64,000 nt of DNA from Fistulifera solaris (GCA_030295235.1 AP026173.1:310001-374000); one strand, 5' to 3'; positions 10,576 through 28,330 are shown, numbered from the stretch's first letter. Made by a program: numbers and translations. The notes: generated by a model from the letters alone, not told the origin.

Positions 10576-12519
10576 CTATACGAGATCGTCGGCATTGGTC
10601 GGCGGAGTTGTCTCGTTCACTTCGATTTCGGCTTGAATTTCTACCTCAGCCTTTTGTGTTTCGTCTTGACTTCCATGGTTATCAGGCTGGACACGGGCAC
10701 CGCGAGCGAGGCAGTTAGGGCAGCAGTCTCGAATGAGATGATACAGGCAGTAGCAGACCGCAAAGAAAACGGCCCAGAAAGCAATGTCGGCCGAGCCGAA
10801 GTTCTTGAAGTCCAAGTTCATGTAGGACAATAATTTCGATCCGCCAGATTTGTTTTCCCCAGAGATTGTTGTTGATGGTATTTTGATGCTAGATTGAACA
10901 TGGTAGCATCCTCGAAACACCGTAGAAGCTTGAGAGGAACTGTCGGTTCGCCAGTTGTTATTCCAGGCTTCATGTTCGCGCTCATCTAAGCACTGACCTC
11001 CAACTCCGTCGTACACATCCATGACTAGGTTATCTTCGTTGCCAGCAACGAATCCCTCGTAAGAGAGACCGGCCAAAATGTCGGAGACATCGCCAGGAAC
11101 GGCAACAAACGAAATTCGCTTCTTGTTCACTCCATCTTTCGTGCACTGCCAGGCGGAATAACTTCGCATGTTGCAGAAATCAAAGTCAGCCAAATGCAAT
11201 GTTTCACTGCTTAGGCTAATGCGACCGTATTGGACGGACAGGTCAACTCGTACGCGATTCAAGTTCAAGTCGGAATCATCCATCAATGACGGGTAGCTGA
11301 AGTTGTAGCTCGGCATATTGTTAACAACCGTCACAATTGCTTCGTTGACGTTGTTCCATGTTGGGGCATGATTCACATGCTGGATATTCACCGTTTGCGT
11401 GGCAAGTCCGGACGCGGCGAGTGTACGCTGCTCCCACAATGCGACAACACGATACTGAAACGACTCGTTGGGCATTTCCAGGGACTCCCCGTAAGCGTTG
11501 GTCGATGGCATCGTGAAGAAATTATCCGACGGTCGTCGGTATTCAATCCACAGACCCGTCGAGTTCACAGGAATGGGAAGGCTATTCGCGCCTGACAACA
11601 GCTTGATTCCTTCGGTGTAAAGCTCTCCCATTGTCGGAATGCTTGCAATGTCAACGAACAGTGGCAACGTGGTAGTCGACGTGTTGGTTCCGCCCACCCA
11701 AATCAAGGTCGGCTCGCTGATCGGGGCATCTTGCTCGATCACGACAGCCTCCGAGGCTTGTGCTTCCAAATAAAGAGGAACAACCGCAGCTTCTCCAACT
11801 CCTTCTTCAAAGAGGTTCTGCACTTGCGTTGTTGTCAGAGTCTGATCAAAGAATGAGATTTGCCGAATGGATCCTTGAAACGGCACAGTGGTGGAGTCAC
11901 TCGCATCAATCTGAGGAAACAGTTGCATCGTCTGATTCATGGGCAGACGAGTCAAATCCGCCGAGTAGGGAATATTCTCCATGATCAGCTTTCCCTGCAT
12001 ATACAAGTTCGTCGAGGATCCCGATGTCGTGATGGTCAAGGACACGGGGACATTGTGTTGCGAGTCGTACTGTCCGATGCGAATCATGCGGCAGGACTGT
12101 GTCGCATCTTCAAAAGCAACGACCAGATTCGCTCCAAACTGCGCCACCATCAAAGAGAATCCATCGCAGCCTCCATCGGTCGGAAGCATGCGAGAGACTT
12201 GGCCCGATCCGAACGTCCAAATGGGCTGCAATGAGGGAATTTCATCCGCCGGAGGCACGGGCGCCGTGATCCAAGTCGACAAGGACCATTCATTGCTGTT
12301 GAGATGATCGCGGAAAGCATCCAAAGTCTGGGTGCTGCGGAGGCTGGTAGCCTGTTGATCACCGAGCTTGATTCCGGTGCTTTCATGGCACTCCAGGCCT
12401 TGAGGAGCGGCGGTAGGCTTCAAGAGTCCGAGTAACGATTCGCTGTTAGACGAGGCCGCCAAGCGCAGAGGATGGCAAGGCGTGAAGGTGAACTGTTCGA
12501 GAGGTTTGTATGATGACAT
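10576..12519 (-). CDS. LamG/concanavalin-A-like plus cadherin-like single-pass membrane protein, copy 1 (intact)
   Basis: Uninterrupted ORF from MSSYKPLE; WSLSTWI...FQGSIRQISFFDQTLTTTQVQNLF (LamG-like); VNIQHVNHAP (cadherin-like linker); TM IAFWAVFFAVCYCLYHLI. Confidence 0.7.
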   Translation of the reverse strand: MSSYKPLEQFTFTPCHPLRLAASSNSESLLGLLKPTAAPQGLECHESTGIKLGDQQATSLRSTQTLDAFRDHLNSNEWSLSTWITAPVPPADEIPSLQPIWTFGSGQVSRMLPTDGGCDGFSLMVAQFGANLVVAFEDATQSCRMIRIGQYDSQHNVPVSLTITTSGSSTNLYMQGKLIMENIPYSADLTRLPMNQTMQLFPQIDASDSTTVPFQGSIRQISFFDQTLTTTQVQNLFEEGVGEAAVVPLYLEAQASEAVVIEQDAPISEPTLIWVGGTNTSTTTLPLFVDIASIPTMGELYTEGIKLLSGANSLPIPVNSTGLWIEYRRPSDNFFTMPSTNAYGESLEMPNESFQYRVVALWEQRTLAASGLATQTVNIQHVNHAPTWNNVNEAIVTVVNNMPSYNFSYPSLMDDSDLNLNRVRVDLSVQYGRISLSSETLHLADFDFCNMRSYSAWQCTKDGVNKKRISFVAVPGDVSDILAGLSYEGFVAGNEDNLVMDVYDGVGGQCLDEREHEAWNNNWRTDSSSQASTVFRGCYHVQSSIKIPSTTISGENKSGGSKLLSYMNLDFKNFGSADIAFWAVFFAVCYCLYHLIRDCCPNCLARGARVQPDNHGSQDETQKAEVEIQAEIEVNETTPPTNADDLV

Positions 12520-13034
12520 GTTTTTTACGTTTGTCGAATTTTGTGAGAAGAAAATGCTTAGAGGTGCCCGTAAAACTTGGCGTTTCCAACTTTTTTCATG
12601 ATGGAAACGTTCATCTGACCGTTTCCATTCAGTCTTGGCGTTTCCGAACGTTTTCGATACCGCTTTTCGCATGCTCCTTAATTGCTTCGCTTTCCCTTGA
12701 TTCGAAGAGTGTAAACGTTTAGCATTGAATTAAATAAACAACCTTTTAGTTATCATCGATAAGAAGATAGAAGTTGTTCTTGAACGAATACAAGGAGCAA
12801 AATGCGTTATAGCATTCTTCTCATTGTTGTCTCTATAGTACATCAAACAGCCGTACAACAGAAATATAAGCGCGTCTTACCAGTACTCAATCATCTTATC
12901 TCCGGGTTCTTTGTTAGCAGCCGACAACGACGCGACGACTTTTACTAACAAGCATACCAGTATTGCAACTTATACTTCTGTCCTTTGAAGAAACATCTCT
13001 TATTCGTAATCATAAACAAACAGATTCAAAAGCC

Positions 13035-14046
13035 ATGGACTTGCTCAAAAGGAAATGGAACGCAAAAGAAGGTCTTGGAAAGTGCCAAGGCCAAGTCGGG
13101 ACGGTTCATTCGAGTCAAAGACCTTCGCGAGGTGGAGGAAGAGGAAACGCAACGTACGAAACGACCCGCCGAGCCATACATGACGGAGACTTCCAAGCGT
13201 TCGAAGACGGATGATGTTGCACAAAACGAACTATCTCCCCAGAGTCAGCCGCTGTTCCCCAAACAGCAATCAGCACGACACGGTGTTACGGACGACATGA
13301 GCTCCATCGACATTACGACGGAGCTGCGTTCGTACGGCTTACCCATTCGACTCTTTGGAGAAACTGATATCGAACGAAGAGAACGATTACAAGATGCACG
13401 AAAAATGCAGAAAGAAACATTGGCGACCTTATCGGAAAAGGAAGAGTTTCGACTGGGCAAGGGACACAGTATTCGGAATCCGTTTCTGGAGAAGAACAAC
13501 AATGAGGATGCGATTGCCGCACCGGCGAAACCGTCCGAAGAAAACAAGTGGACCATCGACGATGAAACGGATCCTCCGAAAAAGATTTATCGCTATTTGA
13601 AAGGTCTGCTTCGCGAATGGGAAGACGATTTGATGCAGCGCCCCGAAGAAGTCAAACGATCCGTCGCCGGGCGAAACGAAACCAAAACGCTCAAACAATG
13701 CAAAGACTATATTCGACCGCTTTTCAAATTGTGTAAGAATCGCACTTTAGCCGAAGACATGATGGGGCATATTCTCAAAATTGTCGAATACTGTCAGCAA
13801 GGAGAGTTTGTCAAAGCCAACGACACGTATATTGATGTAGCCATTGGACGGGCCGCGTGGCCGATCGGTGTGACCATGGTGGGAATTCATGAGCGTACCG
13901 GACGATCGAAAATTAATAGTCAGAATGTGGCTCATGTGATGAATAGTGAATTGCAACGCAAATACTTGACGAGCGTGAAGCGTCTTATTACCTTTGCACA
14001 ACGCAAGCGTCCCGATGTGGATCCGTCAAAGAAAGTAATGAATTAA
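13035..14046 (+). CDS. PRP18: Pre-mRNA splicing factor 18
   Basis: LRSYGLPIRLFGETD (PRP4-like motif), QCKDYIRPLF, AIGRAAWPIGVTMVGIHERTGRSKI, AHVMNSELQRKYL; N-terminal indel after ATG 13035. Confidence 0.93.
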
Positions 14047-17794: not shown

Positions 17795-19577
17795 CTAGCC
17801 CTTAAACCCAAAGCAAAAGCTTGTCTTCTGCTCTTTTGTTTTCTGAAACTCGGATTGTAGATCACCAGCCTGCCTTTTTCTACAACTGTTCTCGTCGCTT
17901 TTCGCACTTTCGTTGTTTCCATCGTCATGGTACAGGAAAGCGGCAATAATATACCGTGTTCCTTGAGTCAGCACTTCCCCGCCGTGATATACAGAGTCTC
18001 CTTTGAAGCTCAACAAGTCTCCCGTCTTCAAATGTACTGTGGTGTCTTCGTCATAAAAGTACGTTCCACCGCCTTCATAATCGTCATTGAGTGCCAAAAC
18101 AAAAGAATGTGTCGATTCGTCTACGTGAATGGGCAGGTGATTTGAGAATGACCCGCCTTCATATTTCACACAAAAGGCATCGTGGATATAAAAATGGGGG
18201 ACAGGCCGAACTGACTCACCAAAATGGGTTGTATCGAAGTCTTGAAGAGGCGCTTGGACCAATCTAGGAGTTTGGGGACGGTATGAACGGGAACATCATG
18301 CGTCGGGACAGCGTAGTGGCGTTGCGTGGTCCATTCTCCACTTTCCGCCCAACGAATAACTTGTTGACACGTTTCGCGGCTAATGACCTCTTTTGTTACG
18401 AACGCCTGGTTTACAACGGCATGCCATGAATGCGATGTCTCTGTTGCAGGGACCTCTGACCGAGAAAAATACTCATAACTCGCAATTTTATCCAGCTGCA
18501 GTCGAATCTCCTTGTGATTACCGCATTCCTTCGGGTAATTTTCTGCTGCTTTTTCCAAATTCGTTGCGCTTGCACAAATTTTCGCTCCGCCAGATACACA
18601 GCACCTAACGCATGCCATAGATCCGGGTCGTTTGGGACTTGTTCTAGCGTCATTTCATACATCTTCTTGGCAAGTTCCAAGTTTACCGCCGAAAAGTAAA
18701 AGTGACCCAGCTGTTGGGCCTCGCGCAGGTTCGTCTGGGGAGGATGGCTGATCCAGTTGCAGGCTTCGTAGCGACATCGTAAGCAACCACACGAATGACC
18801 GGTTCGCCGCTGCAAAGCGTTCTCTCGTAGTTCGACAGAATCGTGCTCCTCGATCTGGCAAATCGTAATCTCACTTTCGTCACTGACATCGTAGAGAGCC
18901 ACAAGCGAAAGCTCGAGGGTATTCTCTGGATTGGTCGCCGACAATTCAAAAACACAGTTGGGTGCACAAGAATGCTGATAGTTGCCAATACATACGTTGG
19001 GATCGATAACGGCATACATTTGCTGCTGCAAATGATCCTGCAAGTACTTCATCACCGCCAAGGCCGAAGTGCGCTTCTTATATCCGGGTAGTTGACGGGT
19101 CAATACAAGCAACTCTGGCTCCTTCAATTTCGGAACAACTTCCGTCGCGTACCGCATCATGGGATGATCTACAGAAACAACAATCATCCTTTGCCGTACT
19201 ATGGAGATTACAGCTTCCCAGCGATGGTATTCGATTTTCTCTTGAACGAATCTCCAAGATGGCTTGGTCAGTGGGTGAGGTTCCGTCTGTTCTTTGCGAG
19301 CCTCGAATTCATCATGCTTTCCACTGTCGACCAACGAAAAAGCGACTTGTATTTCGTACACTTCATAGCGGCTGTAGTGATGCGATTTGTCGATTTTCTC
19401 CAAGAATGTGTGAATGGATTCCGAATACGATGGCGCCGACCGATACGGATCGTCACGTTCTGACGAGTACCGCGGAAAGCCTTTCCTCTTTTTCACATAA
19501 GTATCCTCTTCCGTAAGAGCAACTACATGCCATGGACATTTCTTGTTGATGACAACGTCTCCTTTTCGAAACTTCAT
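17795..19577 (-). CDS. SET/post-SET plus TPR plus 2OG-Fe(II) dioxygenase multidomain protein (two frameshifts)
   Basis: QHSCAPNC...ALYDV..EITI...CGCLRC; TPR DPDLWHALGAVYL; WTTQRHYAVPTHDVPV, DAFCVKY, HVDES, YEGGGTYF, YHGGE..GTRY. Confidence 0.8.
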
Positions 19578-19851
19578 TGATGGTTATAGGAAGGCAACGA
19601 TAATATTCGAAGAAAATGAGGCGGCCCCTCATTATTTTTGCGTTTTGCCCTCACATCAATCCGTGACCCGCGTGTGACGGACGAACGATTCTAATTCTGT
19701 CTGGCAGTCATCCGAAATGCGCGCGACGCCGCGCTCCCCCTTCCGTGTGAGCCACCCATTTCAGTCCTCTTTAACCACCTTCATTTATTGCGATCGATCT
19801 TTCGTTCGTCTCAGTTTCTCTTGAGCTGATCGCCATGGTGCATCCGCTATT

Positions 19852-20102
19852 TGAGGTAGGCGCTGCGGTGTTCGAGGAGCGCCCCGACTTCCGAGTCCGA
19901 GGGCACGCCAATTTATTGGCAGGCTTCTTGGGGAAATTCCCCGGACGTAACGACAGAGAGTGTCACCTCCGCAAGGAGGATCCCCACGCGAGGCTGCGGA
20001 ATGCGACGATGTCATTCTGATGAAGGAGCGTTATCTGACGGCCTCGCGTGGGCCGTCCAAGCAAAGTTATGCCATAACTCAACGGGGATTACGACTACCT
20101 TC
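19852..20102 (+). ncRNA. RNase MRP RNA
   Basis: GGGGAAATTCCCCGGAC (19930-19946) pairs with AACGGGGATTAC (20081-20092) as P4 with a bulged U; P8 GACA-GAGAG-TGTC (GARAR loop); P9 CCTCC-GCAA-GGAGG; P7 GGAC/GTCC; AGTTA motif; P1 GAGGTAG/CTACCTT; T6 run downstream. Ends approximate. Confidence 0.85.
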
Positions 20103-20125
20103 GAGAGAAACTCCCTTTTTTCTTA

Positions 20126-20212
20126 GCGAGCATGATCCTGACTGGTGTTGGGCGCGGACTTCAAATCCGTGGACGCCGAGAGGCGTAGTGGTCCGATTCC
20201 ACCTTGCTCGCG
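20126..20212 (+). tRNA. tRNA-Sec (anticodon TCA), copy 1
   Basis: 87 nt, 9/4 fold: acceptor GCGAGCATG/CTTGCTCGC, 6-bp D stem with TGGT loop, CGCGGA-CTTCAAA-TCCGTG, variable arm ACGCC-GAGA-GGCGT, T stem GTGG/CCAC, discriminator G. Confidence 0.95.
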
Positions 20213-20330
20213 TTTGTGTTGTGCTGCTTTGTATGCCTTTGTGAGTTTCATTCGAGGCTCTGATGATGCAGCACCGCATTCTAGCCGCTGCATTCTCTCG
20301 CTTCTGCGAAACTCTCTCCCTCTTTTCTTA

Positions 20331-20417
20331 GCGAGCATGATCCTGACTGGTGTTGGGCGCGGACTTCAAATCCGTGGACGCCGAGAGGCGTAGTGGTCCG
20401 ATTCCACCTTGCTCGCG
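20331..20417 (+). tRNA. tRNA-Sec (anticodon TCA), copy 2
   Basis: Identical to copy 1; followed by TTTT. Confidence 0.95.
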
Positions 20418-21128
20418 TTTTATGTTATGTTATGTTGTGACCTATTATACTGTCTCTATGAATTTTATTTGAGGCGAGGCAGCCGTTGCACTTGCACAGT
20501 ACTGACTTGTCCTAATAATGCTAGATATATGCGAGAAGAGTCTGTCGCTTTTTAAAGTCATGTCGAAACACAATGCAGCAAAATGTGGATGCTGTTGTTC
20601 TATGCTGCAGTTTCGTCAAAGCCATACCGTTGCGTCTACCCTTGCCTCGACACAGATTCATTGTATTTCCCAAACCCGTTTGCTTGATCATGTTCTATGA
20701 TTGTGGATTCGATGTTGGGCTTACATCCATCGTTGTCAACCGCTGGATTGGGCAAGCAAGTCGTGAAGGAGACCGGGAAGCCCTGCATTAAGTGACGTTG
20801 GTCTTCATGTACAAGACGTGCGAAATAAGCTAAGAGTTTTAACAACGGTGCTTCTGATTGTTATAGACGAAAGAAAAACACTATCACTACTCCTTATTAT
20901 TCTTTTTTATAGTCTTTTTTATAGAAAGTACGACACAACGGGAAGGACAACGTGGATGAAAATTCTCGGGGATGGGATAAAGGTACGTCGAGAAAACGAG
21001 CACGAACACATTGATAAGACAGATCAATCATCGAAAAATGTTAAAAATGGAAGCTCAATATCACGCAGCCAGCCGAATTGGAAAAATGGAAGGACGAAGG
21101 AAGCAACATCATTATCGTCATGATTTGG

Positions 21129-22622
21129 TCAAGCAAGCAAGCAACCGAACAATTTGTCAGTCGAATCTGACCGGATACGCGTATCATCACCACACAGGGA
21201 CAAATCAAGCTCATTGATCGACGCGTCGTCATCGGTAGTCAGCGACCTGAGCAACGAATTCGACGAGATATCGTCAATGCGAGGGTCGTTCGTTCGTTCC
21301 TGGACGCACTTCGGCGACATCGAAGTTCCACACTCGCAGTCATCATTAATGTTAAAGCCCAGCTCCAAAACGAGCAGCTCCAACGACTCGTGTGATTCCA
21401 AAGACGACAACTCCAACGCAGCTTCGCCCTCAGACTCAGAAACCTTGTGAACTTCATCGTGAAGCTCAGAAACATCATGTGGCACATTGCACGGATTTGC
21501 GACGGAAGGCTCTGACTTTTCGTCATCAACACCGGCAACATCGACATCAACATCCTCCGTGGCGTCTGATAGACTGACTCCTGCATACTTTGGCGTAAAA
21601 ATCGTCAATCATTTCGTCCGCGGCGAGTCCAAGTAGGCTACTGATATCATCAATATTGTCGTTCTCTTCAGCGAGCTCCGGAACACTAACGTCTTCGTCG
21701 CCGTCGCCGTCGTCGTCGTCATCATCATCATCTTCGATTGTGATGATTTCTGGCTGTTTCTCCTCGGTTGCAACTTCAACTCTAAGTCCCACTCCAACTG
21801 AATCTTCAACAGCAACACCACCGCTGCGGAGCTTAACAAAACTTCAGCTCCCAGTTCTGCGATCCAAGCGACTATCTGCGATGGCTTCATGCCGGTACTC
21901 TCGACAAGGCCGTCAATTGCAGTCCAGTCGGGAGAAGAATTGTAATCATTCTCCTTCATCCAGTCTATCAACTTGTCGATCTGCCATTTCTCTAGTCCCT
22001 TACTACTGGCTGAAACAGGACGCAGCTGATTGGTAGAAGAGGGGCCGTGGTTGCTGGCCGGCAAACAAGAAGCGACGGGATGATGAACTGCGTTCGTTGC
22101 GACGCGTGCTTTCTTCGGTCCTTTCCGGCTTTTCTTCGCAACATCATCATTCCTTTTCCGACCGAGAATACGGACGTTTTAGAAGCAGCAGAAACAGCCG
22201 TTTCACCTCCCATCACTGCAGCAACAGCAGCTACAGGATCAAGTGACGATGCTGCGGCCGAACCCGTAACGACACTCACCGACGCAGTACCCTTCGTCTG
22301 GAAGGAAGCCATATCACTCAGTTCCTTTCTCAAGATCTTGAAACTGTCGTCAAGGATCGCATCAATGGTCGTGAATTCACCGCGACGAACGACGCTATGC
22401 TCTGTGTGCTGCAAAGCCTTGGATTTGTCTCCAAAGCTAATTGCAATATTCACCGTCTCTTCGACAGAGAATTTGCTAGCAGGAACCCATTGCTTCGATT
22501 TCCACTGAGACCCAGTGCTCTTGGCGAATATCCTCCTTCTTTTCGAGTACTTTGTTAGCTAACGACACGAGGAGAGGCAACTCCTCGTGCCAAACGATAG
22601 GATTAATCTTGTTATCTTTCAT
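21129..22622 (-). CDS. Divergent TALE-homeodomain-like protein, copy 2 (frameshifted)
   Basis: Same architecture as copy 1; ends DKLFGCLLA*. Confidence 0.65.
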
Positions 22623-23460
22623 TTTGTTTGCTTTGCGATGCTGCGGACACTTGACTTTGTCAATTGTACTATTTGTAAGCGATTTCAAACCTTCAAAACA
22701 TCAAAAGCAAGCACAAATGTGAGTAAAGACTTCATCTTTCATGAAAAGAGACAAAAGAGTCCGAAAGTAGACGTTAATAAAGATCTTCATGGTACGTAGT
22801 AACTTACCTTTCAACACGGCGATTCCTTCGAAAAGTGCGAACAAGCAGCGAAAATGTACAGCAGCGGTACGGCTTAGATACAGTATCGTCGTATTTGTAG
22901 CGTATGTTGTATAATAGTAACGTAGCCTTGGTAGTCCTCGCCACGTACGCATACGTGGTACTCAAATCACGTAGCAATAATACACCGCAGCAAGCTTTAA
23001 CCAAAAATCACACCATGGTGTCTTTTTCGCTCTGAAAGCGACGTAATATCCTCTGATATGCCTTTGCATCATCACTCATCAACTCTTTATCGTCCTGGGT
23101 ATCGAGTATCGGTGTGGACTGTCGCGCCTCGCATTCCTGAGGAGTGAAAGAACTCGCCGTTACCTCGCGCGCGCTCGAGTGGTGTTCCTGGTTCACCGCA
23201 TCAAAAACAACTTATTTATCGTCAAACAAATCGTTAAAAGATGAAATTTACCCCGCTACCAAATTACTCTATTTCTTTTGATTAAGGGAAACAAAGCAAT
23301 TAACGAGTATGCGAAAAGCGGTATCGGAAACGTTCGGAAACGCCAAGACTGAATGGAAACGGTCAGATGAACGTTTCCATCATGAAAATGTTGGAAACGC
23401 CAAGATTCAGGGGCACCTCTAAGCATTTTCTTCTCACAAAATTCGACAAACGTAAAAAGC

Positions 23461-25403
23461 ATGTCATCATACAAACCTCTCGAACAGTTCACCTTCACGC
23501 CTTGCCATCCTCTGCGCTTGGCGGCCTCGTCTAACAGCGAATCGTTACTCGGACTCTTGCAGCCTACCGCCGCTCCTCAAGGCCTGATGTGCCATGAAAG
23601 CACCGGAATCAAGCTCGGTAATCAACAAGCTACCAGCCTCCGCAGCACCCAGACTCTGGATGCGTTCCGCGATCATCTCAACAGCAATGAATGGTCCTTG
23701 TCGACTTGGATCACGGCGCCCGTTCCTCCGGCGGATGAAATTCCCTCATTGCAGCCCATTTGGACGTTCGGATCGGGCCAAGTCTCTCGCATGCTTCCGA
23801 CCGATGGAGGATGCGATGGATTCTCTTTGATGGTGGCGCAATTTGGAGCGAATCTCGTCGTTGCCTTTGAAGATGCGACACACTCCTGCCGCATGATTCG
23901 CATCGGACAGTACGAGTCGCAACACAATGTCTTCGTGTTTTTGACCATCACGACATCGGGATCCACGACGAACTTGTTTATGCAGGGAAAGCTGATCATG
24001 GAGAATATTCCCTACTCGGCGGATTTGACTCGTCTGCCCATGAATCAGACGATGCAACTGTTTCCTCAGATTGATGCGAGTGACTCCACCACTGTGCCGT
24101 TTCAAGGATCCATTCGGCAAATCTCATTCTTTGATCAGACTCTGACAACAACGCAAGTGCAGCAACTCTTTGAAGAAGGAGTTGGAGAAGCTGCGGTTGT
24201 TCCTTTTATTTGGAAGCACAAGCCTCGGAGGCTGTCGTGATCGAGCAAGATGCCCCGATCAGCGAGCCGACCTTGATTTGGGTGGGCGGAACCAACACGT
24301 CGACTACCACGTTGCCACTGTTCGTTGACATTGCAAGCATTCCGACAATGGGAGAGCTTTACACCGAAGGAATCAAGCTGTTGTCAGGCGCGAATAGCCT
24401 TCCCATTCCTGTGAACTCGACGGGTCTGTGGATTGAATACCGACGACCGTCGGATAATTTCTTCACGATGCCATCGACCAACGCTTACGGGGAGTCCCTG
24501 GAAATGCCCAACGAGTCGTTTCAGTATCGTGTTGTCGCATTGTGGGAGCAGCGTACACTCGCCGCGTCCGGACTTGTCACGCAAACGGTGAATATCCAGC
24601 ATGTGAATCATGCCCCAACATGGAACAACGTCAACGAAGCAATTGTGACGGTTGTTAACAGTATGCCGAGCTACAACTTCAGCTACCCGTCATTGATGGA
24701 TGATTCCGACTTGAACTTGCATCGCGTACGAGTTGACTTGACTGTCCAACACGGTCGCATCAGCCTAAACATTGAAACGCTCCACTTGGCTGACTTTGAC
24801 TTCTGCAACATGCGAAGTTACTCCGCCTGGCAGTGCACGAAAGATGGAGTTAACAAGAAGCTTAATTTCGTTTGTTGCCGTTCCTGGCGATGTCTCTGAC
24901 ATTTTGGCCGGTCTCTCTTACGAGGGATTCGTTGCTGGCAACGAAGATAAACTAGTCATGGATGTGTACGACGGAGTTGGAGGTCAGTGCTTAGATAAGC
25001 GAACATGAAGCCTGGAATAACAACTGGCGAACCGACAGCTCCTCTCAAGCTTCTACGGTGTTTCGAGGATGCTACCATGTTCAATCTAGCATCAAAATAC
25101 CATCAACAACAATCTCTGGGGAAAGCAAATCTGGCGGATCAAAATTACTGTCGTACATGAATCTGGACTTCAAGAACTTTGGCTCGGCCGACATTGTTTT
25201 CTGGGCCGTTTTCTTTCGCGGTCTGCTACTGCCTGTATCATCTCATTCGAGACTGCTGCCCTAACTGCCTCGCTCGCGGTGCCCGTGTCCAGCCTGATAA
25301 CCATGGAAGTCAAGACGAAACACAAAAGGCTGAGGTAGAAATTCAAGCCGAAATCGAAGTGAACGAGACAACTCCGCCGACCAATGCCGACGATCTCGTA
25401 TAG
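23461..25403 (+). CDS. LamG/cadherin-like membrane protein, copy 2 (frameshifted)
   Basis: Near-identical to 10576..12519 in inverted orientation. Confidence 0.75.
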
Positions 25404-25930: not shown

Positions 25931-26770
25931 ATCAACGGGATATCCAAGTAAAATGTGAATCATCGTCGATAGTACTCGTCGGAACCTTGCATATCGTGCG
26001 CAAGTTGCAGATCTCGTAATGTACGCGACATTCAGAAGACGACGAGCGATCGAAGCAGCGCCAAACCGCGAGACACTGGACATGATTCATGCGTTTGCGA
26101 CGCATTCAGCTTTCTAAGACACAATACATATCCATGCGACCACGAGAAGGAATGAAACGATCCAGAAAGACAGTACGATAAGGGGCTGAACGGTGATGAA
26201 CAGTGAACACCACTCGAGCGCGCGCGAGGTAACGGCGAGTTCTTTCACTCCTCAGGAATGCGAGGCGCGACAGTCCACACCGATACTCGATACCCAGGAC
26301 GATAAAGAGTTGATGAGTGATGATGCAAAGGCATATCAGAGGATATTACGTCGCTTTCAGAGCGAAAAAGACACCATGGTGTGATTTTTGGTTAAAGCTT
26401 GCTGCGGTGTATTATTGCTACGTGATTTGAGTACCACGTATGCGTACGTGGCGAGGACTACCAAGGCTACGTTACTATTATACAACATACGCTACAAATA
26501 CGACGATACTGTATCTAAGCCGTACCGCTGCTGTACATTTTCGCTGCTTGTTCGCACTTTTCGAAGGAATCGCCGTGTTGAAAGGTAAGTTACTACGTAC
26601 CATGAAGATCTTTATTAACGTCTACTTTCGGACTCTTTTGTCTCTTTTTCATGAAAGATGAAGTCTTTACTCACATTTGTGCTTGCTTTTGATGTTTTGA
26701 AGGTTTGAAATCGCTTACAAATAGTACAATTGACAAAGTCAAGTGTCCGCAGCATCGCAAAGCAAACAAA

Positions 26771-28330
26771 ATGAAAGATAACAAGATTAATCCTATCGTT
26801 TGGCACGAGGAGTTGCCTCTCCTCGTGTCGTTAGCTAACAAAGTACTCGAAAAGAAGGAGGATATTCGCAAGAGCACTGGGTCTCAGTGGAAATCGAAGC
26901 AATGGGTTCCTGCTAGCAAATTCTCTGTCGAAGAGACGGTGAATATTGCAATTAGCTTTGGAGACAAATCCAAGGCTTTGCAGCACACAGAGCATAGCGT
27001 CGTTCGTCGCGGTGAATTCACGACCATTGATGCGATCCTTGACGACAGTTTCAAGATCTTGAGAAAGGAACTGAGTGATATGGCTTCCTTCCAGACGAAG
27101 GGTACTGCGTCGGTGAGTGTCGTTACGGGTTCGGCCGCAGCATCGTCACTTGATCCTGTAGCTGCTGTTGCTGCAGTGATGGGGAGGTGAAACGGCTGTT
27201 TCTGCTGCTTCTAAACGTCCGTATTCTCGGTCGAAAAGGAATGATGATGTTGCGAAGAAAAGCCGGAAAGGACCGAAGAAAGCACGCGTCGCAACGAACG
27301 CAGTTCATCATCCCGTCGCTTCTTGTTTGCCGGCCAGCAACCACGGCCCCTCTTCTACCAATCAGCTGCGTCCTGTTTCAGCCAGTAGTAAGGGACTAGA
27401 GAAATGGCAGATCGACAAGTTGATAGACTGGATGAAGGAGAATGATTACAATTCTTCTCCCGACTGGACTGCAATTGACGGCCTTGTCGAGAGTACCGGC
27501 ATGAAGCCATCGCGAGATAGTCGCTTGGATCGCAGAACTGGGAGCGAAGTTTTGTTAAGCTCCGCAGCGGTGGTGTTGCTGTTGAAGATTCAGTTGGAGT
27601 GGGACTTAGAGTTGAAGTTGCAACCGAGGGAGAAACAGCCAGAAATCATCACAATCGAAGATGATGATGATGACGACGACGACGGCGACGACGACGAAGA
27701 CGTTAGTGTTCGGAGCTCGCTGAAGAGAACGACAATATTGATGATATCAGTAGCCTACTTGGACTCGCCGCGGACGAAATGATTGACGATTTTTACGCAA
27801 AGTATGCAGGAGTCAGTCTATCAGACGCCCACGGAGGATGTTGATGTCGATGTTGCCGGTGTTGATGATGATGAAGCTACCTGGGATCCGTTCATTGCAG
27901 AGTTCTTCGGACGTGATGGACGCAGATGAGTTAGATGTTGTTCATGACGAAAAGTCAGAGCCCTCCGTCAGCAAAAGCCGTGCAAGGGGCAACAAGATGC
28001 TTGCGAAGCTCACAGTAATGCCCGCAATACATTTGAGTCCGAGGGTGAAGCGGCGTTGGAATCGTCGTGTTTGGAATCACTCGAGTCATTAGAGCTGCTC
28101 GTTTTGGAGCTTGGCTTCAATTTTGATGATGACTGCGAGTGTGGAACTTCGATTTTGTCTGCGTCGTCCAGGAAGGAACGAAGGACCCGTGCATTGACGG
28201 AAATTCATCAAATTTGTTGCTTGGACAGTTGACTTCCGATGAAGATGCGTTGATCAAAGAGCTTGCCTTGTCCCTGTCTGGTGTTGACGAGGATCTTTCC
28301 AGCCCATCCACTCGTGATTCGGTCATCTCC
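26771..28330 (+). CDS. Divergent TALE-homeodomain-like protein, copy 3 (frameshifted, altered 3' end; end approximate)
   Basis: MKDNKINP at 26771; homeodomain-like segment near 27395-27540; upstream intron GT26585..AG near 26702; homology breaks after PSTR near 28315. Confidence 0.6.

Follow-up and report, generated by a model that had tools for sequence, protein, structure and literature searches.

An RNase MRP RNA Gene and Two tRNA-Sec Genes on One Strand

The DNA analyzed here is a stretch of 64,000 nt from Fistulifera solaris, in the following termed the window. A search of the whole 64-kb window with Rfam cmscan at gathering thresholds yielded exactly three matches, one to RNase_MRP and two to tRNA-Sec, all on the plus strand. 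The RNase_MRP core (RF00030) occupies positions 19852-20101 (+) and scores 61.1 bits against a threshold of 50 (E 1.3e-14, model positions 1-266 of 266), so that the MRP RNA gene proposed in an earlier, sequence-only reading is now backed by a covariance-model match above the Rfam threshold. Within the clan, none of the RNase P families in Rfam scored above MRP at 19852-20101, and the two marks that separate MRP from RNase P RNA, the P3 domain and the GARAR loop of P8, both aligned to the Rfam model. Relaxing the search to E values up to 1 over 19400-22400 returned no other Rfam family, save a faint match to the MRP model of Giardia.

The P4 pseudoknot, the GARAR loop of P8 and the P9 hairpin that had been named in the sequence-only reading were all found in the MRP RNA of the window. 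CR-I (GGGGAAATTCCCCGGAC, 19930-19946, +) contains the 5' strand of P4 and CR-V (GGGGATTA, 20084-20091, +) its 3' strand, with AAATTCCCC (19934-19942) pairing with GGGGATT (20084-20090). In the Rfam consensus alignment, the P8 hairpin with its GAGAG loop (GACAGAGAGTGTC) is located at 19952-19964 (+) and the P9 hairpin with a GCAA loop at 19966-19979 (+). A compensatory change in P4 had also been suggested, and this is borne out by the metagenome loci described below: the variable pair between CR-I and CR-V is T:A in the window, and it is G:C in 13, T:A in five and T:G in four of these loci. The pair can form in the window and in all 22 evaluable loci with no mismatches, 22 being those of the 24 loci in which both strands are present, as the other two are without CR-V.

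The first tRNA-Sec gene (copy 1) is located at 20126-20212 (+; Rfam match 20126-20211) with the anticodon TCA at 20161-20163 (+), and an identical second gene (copy 2) at 20331-20417 (+; Rfam match 20331-20416); each scores 79.9 bits against a threshold of 47. Rfam (RF01852) and ARAGORN agree on both copies and on the plus strand, which is the tandem arrangement on the strand of MRP that had been claimed, and ARAGORN identified the same two tRNA-SeC genes with the anticodon TCA and no further tRNA across the 64 kb. The fold is that of tRNA-Sec, with a 9/4 arrangement, a 6-bp D stem with a 4-nt loop and a long variable arm. A consensus fold of six tRNA-Sec copies from four lineages comprises 28 pairs, 10 of which show double compensatory changes. 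Both copies lie within a direct repeat of 105 nt (20111-20215 and 20316-20420, 99% identical).

With regard to the neighborhood, a SET/TPR-domain gene diverging from MRP occupies 18411-19577 (-), and an open reading frame of 288 aa with a Pfam Prp18 match is found at 13180-14046. Over all 288 aa, this Prp18 protein shows 100% identity to an NCBI entry assigned to Fistulifera solaris; the next-best proteins reach 88% and 79%, followed by those of other pennate diatoms with 55-66%, which places the window in a raphid pennate diatom. Two open reading frames with a Laminin_G_3 domain are located at 10576-12672 and 23461-24240. A large inverted repeat (21319-23195 and 26197-28153), with arms of about 1.9 kb that are mostly 99-100% identical and lie 3 kb apart, begins 0.9 kb downstream of the tRNA array.

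Extent of the MRP RNA and Distance to the First tRNA-Sec

The MRP RNA very probably extends beyond the Rfam match, from about 19813 to at least 20112, as suggested by a covarying closing helix that is retained in the minimum-energy fold of 19813-20121 (z -5.1). The 5' strand of this predicted helix (AGTTTCTCTTGA, 19813-19824, +) pairs with its 3' strand (TCGAGAGAAACT, 20101-20112, +) in 12 bp, one of them a G-T pair. In seven lineages, the equivalent helix begins directly 3' of a TCTC|AG-type junction; positions 2-6 pair in all seven, and positions 2, 4, 5 and 6 each occur with at least two standard pair types, position 2 being G-C in some and C-G in others. The predicted RNase MRP RNA gene accordingly covers 19813-20121 (+), from the A after TCTC through the end of a T6 tract. 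The Rfam RNase_MRP model is without this outer closing helix, which adds about 39 nt at the 5' side and at least 11 nt at the 3' side, and a 27-nt insert (19825-19851) lies between the outer and the inner helix on the 5' side in the window. A corrected diatom MRP RNA model with the longer closing helix would be usable in practice.

Just 3' of the closing helix, a C-rich motif occurs whether or not a tRNA is present; it reads ACTC(A)CCC and often continues with CAA. It was seen in the window (20111-20115) and in the metagenome loci L002, L005, L006, L015, L021 and L022, and it may represent a 3' tail or a processing signal.

The spacer between the closing helix and copy 1 (CCCTTTTTTCTTA, 13 nt, 20113-20125, +) contains the T6 tract at 20116-20121, which is followed by CTTA and then by the tRNA from G20126, as in the earlier claim of a 4-nt gap between the T6 and copy 1. 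The gap of 23 nt that had been given between MRP and the tRNA needs revision, since 24 nt lie between the end of the Rfam match and the tRNA, and, as the closing helix ends at 20112, the distance from the MRP RNA to the tRNA is only 13 nt. Downstream of copy 1 there is no T4 for 111 nt; the inter-copy spacer (20213-20330, +) contains a single T4 at 20323-20326, and its last 30 nt or so repeat the sequence upstream of copy 1. A T4 also occurs 3' of copy 2, at 20418-20421 (+2). We also considered the inter-copy spacer as a decayed MRP copy and rejected this, as 54 of 500 shuffles scored equally well once the last 32 nt were left out.

The MRP-tRNA-Sec Linkage in Metagenome Relatives

Relatives of the locus were collected in one scan of metagenome contigs with a pattern spanning CR-I to P8, which returned 24 loci, a small sample that is biased towards MRP genes with one exact pattern. 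All 24 carry an MRP RNA, of which 17 reach the Rfam threshold and seven score 30.8-49 bits. Pattern scans of a genome contig collection and of a viral contig collection gave no matches in either.

Three of the 24 loci (L006, L009 and L015) have tRNA-Sec directly 3' of MRP on the same strand. Three nearly identical copies follow MRP in L006 and one in L009, and in L015 a third copy with the anticodon TCG accompanies two intact ones. This third copy (L015:180-265, - strand) has a weakened D arm, scores 52.5 bits and is probably decaying. The tRNA-Sec genes of these relatives differ from that of the window at 19-27 of 86 positions. Between the closing helix and the tRNA lie 13 nt in the window, and the corresponding gaps of L006, L015 and L009 measure 12, 18 and 10 nt, respectively, whereas tRNA copies are separated from each other by 85-149 nt. 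The linkage thus recurs, with gaps of 10-18 nt, in three metagenome relatives, synteny having been named beforehand as a way to check it.

MRP identity to the window amounts to 73% for L009, 69% for L004 (the 5' half of an L009-like gene), 61% for L015, 58% for L006 and for L005/L017, 57% for L002 and 56% for L021; the remaining loci compared do not exceed 50%. L006, L009 and L015 are all among the eight loci closest to the window by this measure and are spread over the grouping that it yields, so that, judged by MRP sequence, the linkage spans the deepest split seen within the group of the window. Upstream of the L004 MRP, a homologue of the SET/TPR gene (L004:3-644, - strand) lies on the opposite strand, as it does in the window, and the two proteins share 28% identity over 220 aa (E 2e-18). 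The presence of this diverging homologue at such low protein identity marks the MRP locus, as read from these sequences, as orthologous and old.

L005 and L017, which are identical to each other and show 73-74% MRP identity to L006 and L015, have no tRNA-Sec within about 800 nt downstream of MRP. A 10-mer, TCTGATGATG, is common to the inter-tRNA spacers of the window (20259-20268) and L015, some 50-60 nt past copy 1, and the inter-copy spacers of L006 and L015 share the block ATGTTCGA.GT.A...TGAAT. As these spacer sequences are common to separate lineages, the tandem duplication may be older than the lineages themselves. GATGA-like motifs precede later tRNA copies at distances that vary from case to case. 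In L011 and L014, MRP is followed by a T5-T6 run and then, at a distance of about 225 nt from MRP, by a SNORD36-type C/D snoRNA (L011:1489-1586 and L014:587-684; 43 bits, threshold 30) that is encoded on the strand of MRP.

The linkage had been put forward as undescribed, and a full-text literature search, with subscription journals and supplements outside its scope, gave no description of it. The Secmarker paper, in which 11 tRNA-Sec genes are predicted for the diatom Fragilariopsis cylindrus (PMC5330540), contains none of the terms 'MRP', 'promoter' and 'tandem', and 'MRP' is likewise absent from a 2026 review on the tRNA genes of photosynthetic organisms (PMC13578239).

A tRNA-Shaped Element Downstream of MRP

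A non-tRNA cloverleaf, here termed element X, is found on the strand of MRP in L021 and L002, about 16 and 23 nt past the closing helix, respectively. In L002, the predicted cloverleaf has a 5-nt 'anticodon' loop and a z of -2.8. A hairpin resembling a T arm (GG-TGCAACT-CC) shows double changes in three of its six pairs, and four distant loci rich in G+C (L008, L016, L018 and L024) have it as well, about 140 nt past MRP. Element X is located at L021:1226-1304, L002:533-609, L018:508-566, L016:870-928 and L024:632-690 (- strand), and is also present in L008. No Rfam family corresponds to it, the best tRNA score being 12.3 bits (E 7.6). As far as the fold prediction goes, element X and tRNA-Sec appear to share the tRNA shape at the same position after MRP.

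Taken together, six of the seven distinct lineages of the group for which a 3' flank is present carry a tRNA or tRNA-like gene at a distance of 10 to about 23 nt from the helix, namely tRNA-Sec in the window, L006, L009 and L015, and element X in L002 and L021; the exception is L005/L017.

T-Runs and Promoter Sequences Around the Genes

A run of at least four T between MRP and the first tRNA-Sec is present in the window (the T6) and in none of L006, L015 and L009. In L015, the first T-run (T5) occurs 20 nt past copy 2, and in L009 172 nt past the tRNA. In L006, a T5 occurs 50 nt past copy 1, and T5 and T4 runs lie between copies 1, 2 and 3; because of these runs, copies 2 and 3 of L006 probably start transcription on their own. 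T5-T6 runs are found shortly 3' of MRP in L002, L003, L011, L012, L014, L019 and L022, and a T4 in L023.

An avoidance of T-runs was considered and rejected: depending on the segment, 10-95% of 2000 shuffles were free of TTTT (709 of 2000 for the trailer of copy 1 in the window), so that T4-free stretches are not unusual. T4 runs also occur inside the MRP genes of L006, L009, L021 and L002, and a T9 inside that of L013, and L005/L017 have no T4 for 585 nt past CR-V and no tRNA. For these reasons, T-runs are a poor guide to termination here, and the internal runs cast doubt on whether Pol III transcribes MRP in all of these lineages. Runs of T4-T5 inside MRP genes were also seen in L022, L003 and L018.

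The coding region of the SET/TPR gene ends at 19577, leaving about 235 nt for an MRP promoter. No TATA-like box was found at a fixed distance upstream of MRP in seven lineages, and a pyrimidine-rich run ending in TCTC|AG is all that the seven share there. Likewise, there is no TATA-like box around -30 of either tRNA-Sec gene in the window, where copy 1 reads ACCTTCGA and copy 2 GCTTCTGC; the upstream sequence common to both copies is limited to about 30 nt. A scan for bacterial-type promoters and terminators was set aside as irrelevant to a eukaryote.

Contigs From Sequencing Runs

Further evidence came from four sequencing runs in the form of assembled contigs. MRP pieces identical to the window were found in two metatranscriptome runs, X2 (19866-20085) and X4 (19941-20083), and are compatible with expression of the gene, falling short of proof. 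As neither contig extends to the 3' strand of the inner helix, their ends, at 20085 and 20083, reflect thinning coverage rather than RNA ends. Among the assembled RNA-library contigs, none spans 20092-20125 or the junction at 20101-20126, which does not imply that a precursor is absent.

Run X1 is DNA-like, with a flat depth of 12-24 that includes intergenic parts. The depth over the tRNA body is about 77 compared to about 12-17 in the flanks, and from this difference the genome holds about six tRNA-Sec copies. The genome also holds a second MRP copy, seen in X1 as a variant with eight differences and five gaps over 19949-20082. Fistulifera solaris is allodiploid, which would explain this second variant. 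Two extra contexts downstream of tRNA-Sec in X1 were considered as dispersed copies and dropped, as they may belong to the second subgenome.

In run X6, which stems from a relative, MRP is found on a 267-nt contig starting about 12 nt before the equivalent of 19840 and differing from the window by 19 letters and nine gaps over 248 nt of 19840-20087. The tRNA-Sec of X6 has two differences from that of the window and is located on a 2781-nt contig with unrelated sequence upstream. From the later tandem copies, L005/L017 and X6, it follows that tRNA-Sec genes can exist away from MRP.

A Possible Shared Transcript of MRP RNA and tRNA-Sec

The reading to which we tentatively lean, and which we regard as quite possible, is that of an inherited non-coding RNA module of pennate diatoms, in which tRNA-Sec lies in the 3' trailer of MRP and a shared transcript is cut by RNase P and RNase Z. 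Transcription from the upstream promoter of MRP would extend into the first tRNA-Sec, and some lineages would include the next copy as well; RNase P would cut at the 5' end of the tRNA and RNase Z at its 3' end. These cuts would release the tRNA and leave the MRP RNA with a short tail past the closing helix. In the window, the T6 could act as an attenuator at which most MRP transcripts stop and a fraction reads through. The joint transcript, its processing and the dependence of the tRNA on the MRP promoter are what we infer; we favor them because they offer the sole explanation for both the constrained spacing and the tRNA-shaped stand-in, and because tRNA-Sec elsewhere depends on outside promoters.

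The T6 between the genes speaks against a shared transcript, as do the T-runs of L006, the MRP genes of L005/L017 without a tRNA, the context of tRNA-Sec in X6 and the result of the shuffles. The T6 is not decisive, since T6 tracts are leaky in yeast and a CT past the T-run weakens termination, according to a passage of PMC5356446, and the T6 of the window is followed by CT. Co-transcription or a shared promoter, as put forward in the sequence-only reading, hence stands in part: it gains from the tighter geometry, from the linkage conserved in relatives that have no run of four or more T between the genes and from the lack of a TATA-like box at -30, and it loses by the T6 in the window and by tRNA-Sec genes that also occur away from MRP.

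The best surviving alternative, which we consider possible, is a compact array of independent genes, in which MRP would end at the T6, each tRNA-Sec would have its own Pol III transcription and the adjacency would represent old microsynteny. The T6 is indeed placed right past the closing helix, as for a Pol III terminator, and T-runs follow MRP in eight other loci. Transcription of copy 1 would start within the 4 nt that separate the T-run from the tRNA; a start at the usual yeast distance of 10-12 nt upstream would put the T6 inside the leader. TFIIIC would bind to the internal B box (GGTCCGATTCC) and TFIIIB would be positioned over the 3' end of MRP, whereas tRNA-Sec is known to escape the promoter control that internal A and B boxes normally exert (PMC5356446 and PMC2943599), and vertebrate tRNA-Sec in particular has no self-sufficient internal promoter and uses extragenic elements (PMC2943599). 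Independent genes would fit the later tandem copies of L006, which are intact behind T-runs, the MRP of L005/L017 without a tRNA, the tRNA-Sec of X6 in another context, the several additional copies implied by the depth in X1 and the 11 predictions given for F. cylindrus (PMC5330540). The linkage would then survive since rearrangements would seldom hit a gap as small as 10-18 nt, but the retention of this gap in four lineages next to far longer inter-copy gaps is left unexplained, as is the non-tRNA cloverleaf at the same place in relatives, and the lack of a T4 over the 111 nt downstream of copy 1 does not fit either.

A reverse dependence, in which the B box of the downstream tRNA or tRNA-like element would recruit TFIIIC for MRP by analogy to yeast SNR6 with its B box in the 3' trailer (so described in a passage of PMC5356446), appears highly improbable: a T arm resembling a B box is present downstream of MRP in the window, L006, L009 and L015 (within tRNA-Sec), and the GGTGCAACTCC hairpin in L002, L018, L021, L008, L016 and L024, but the stem of this hairpin covaries, pointing to an RNA rather than a DNA element, the B box would lie about 370 nt from the MRP start, and 10 of the 24 loci (L003, L005, L011-L014, L017, L019, L022 and L023) have neither tRNA-Sec nor the hairpin in the downstream sequence present on their contigs, with neither seen in L007 and L010, where variants may occur.

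If we return to the shared transcript, a broader version would hold that tRNA-Sec of pennate diatoms has no promoter of its own and stems from a polycistron in the MRP trailer with one to three copies, that the RNase P cut also makes the 3' end of MRP, and that element X replaces a lost tRNA in its role in processing. We regard this broader version as rather doubtful.

Implications and Comparison With Known Systems

Diatoms depend heavily on selenoproteins, and we know of no work on the transcription of tRNA-Sec in algae. Among the few eukaryotes studied, this transcription differs sharply, with an upstream Pol III promoter in vertebrates and a Pol II polycistron in trypanosomes. If the shared transcript holds true, tRNA-Sec placed on an MRP gene would be a third solution, and the maturation of MRP RNA would be tied to RNase P; if the genes are independent, the finding shrinks to conserved microsynteny. 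The module is directly testable in diatoms that can be transformed, and it provides compact candidate promoter and terminator parts for the expression of small RNAs in diatoms.

In vertebrates, RNase MRP RNA and tRNA-Sec are encoded at separate loci, each with its own upstream Pol III elements. The same two RNA families are concerned here, whereas the diatom genes abut and have no TATA-like box at a fixed distance from MRP or at -30 of the tRNA. Plants possess dicistronic tRNA-snoRNA genes, reportedly described by Kruszka and colleagues in 2003, and in yeast, dicistronic tRNA-tRNA pairs are released by the tRNA-processing enzymes. The diatom arrangement resembles these in the common strand, in a spacer ranging from a few nucleotides to some tens and in the release by RNase P and RNase Z that we propose. 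In the plant and yeast units, however, the tRNA comes first and brings the promoter, whereas in the diatom it lies downstream, with a T6 between the genes in the window.

The 3' end of MALAT1 is made by RNase P at a tRNA-shaped element, mascRNA. Similarly, a tRNA-shaped element past a structured non-coding RNA would set its 3' end in the diatoms, and element X of L021 and L002 fits this likeness. In contrast to mascRNA, the element of the window is a genuine tRNA-Sec with a UCA anticodon and compensatory changes, and the RNA upstream is that of a paralogue of RNase P.

In Giardia, dicistronic precursors and a 3' processing motif of 12 nt are known from non-coding RNA genes, among them that of RNase MRP RNA (PMC3510501). 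The motif and the organism are different and no tRNA is involved in the Giardia case as given there; the likeness lies in an MRP 3' end that would be formed from longer or dicistronic precursors, with the C-rich ACTC(A)CCC as the candidate motif at the loci of the diatom type. The tRNA-Sec gene of Trypanosoma brucei is embedded in a Pol II polycistron and requires an added promoter when placed elsewhere (Aeby et al., 2010; PMC2943599). The host unit in T. brucei is a protein-coding polycistron, and its transcription by Pol II has, according to that study, been established by experiment, whereas the diatom host would be a single non-coding RNA gene read from sequence. Both cases would nevertheless work in the same manner, in that a tRNA-Sec without a promoter of its own would be obtained from the transcript of a host unit.
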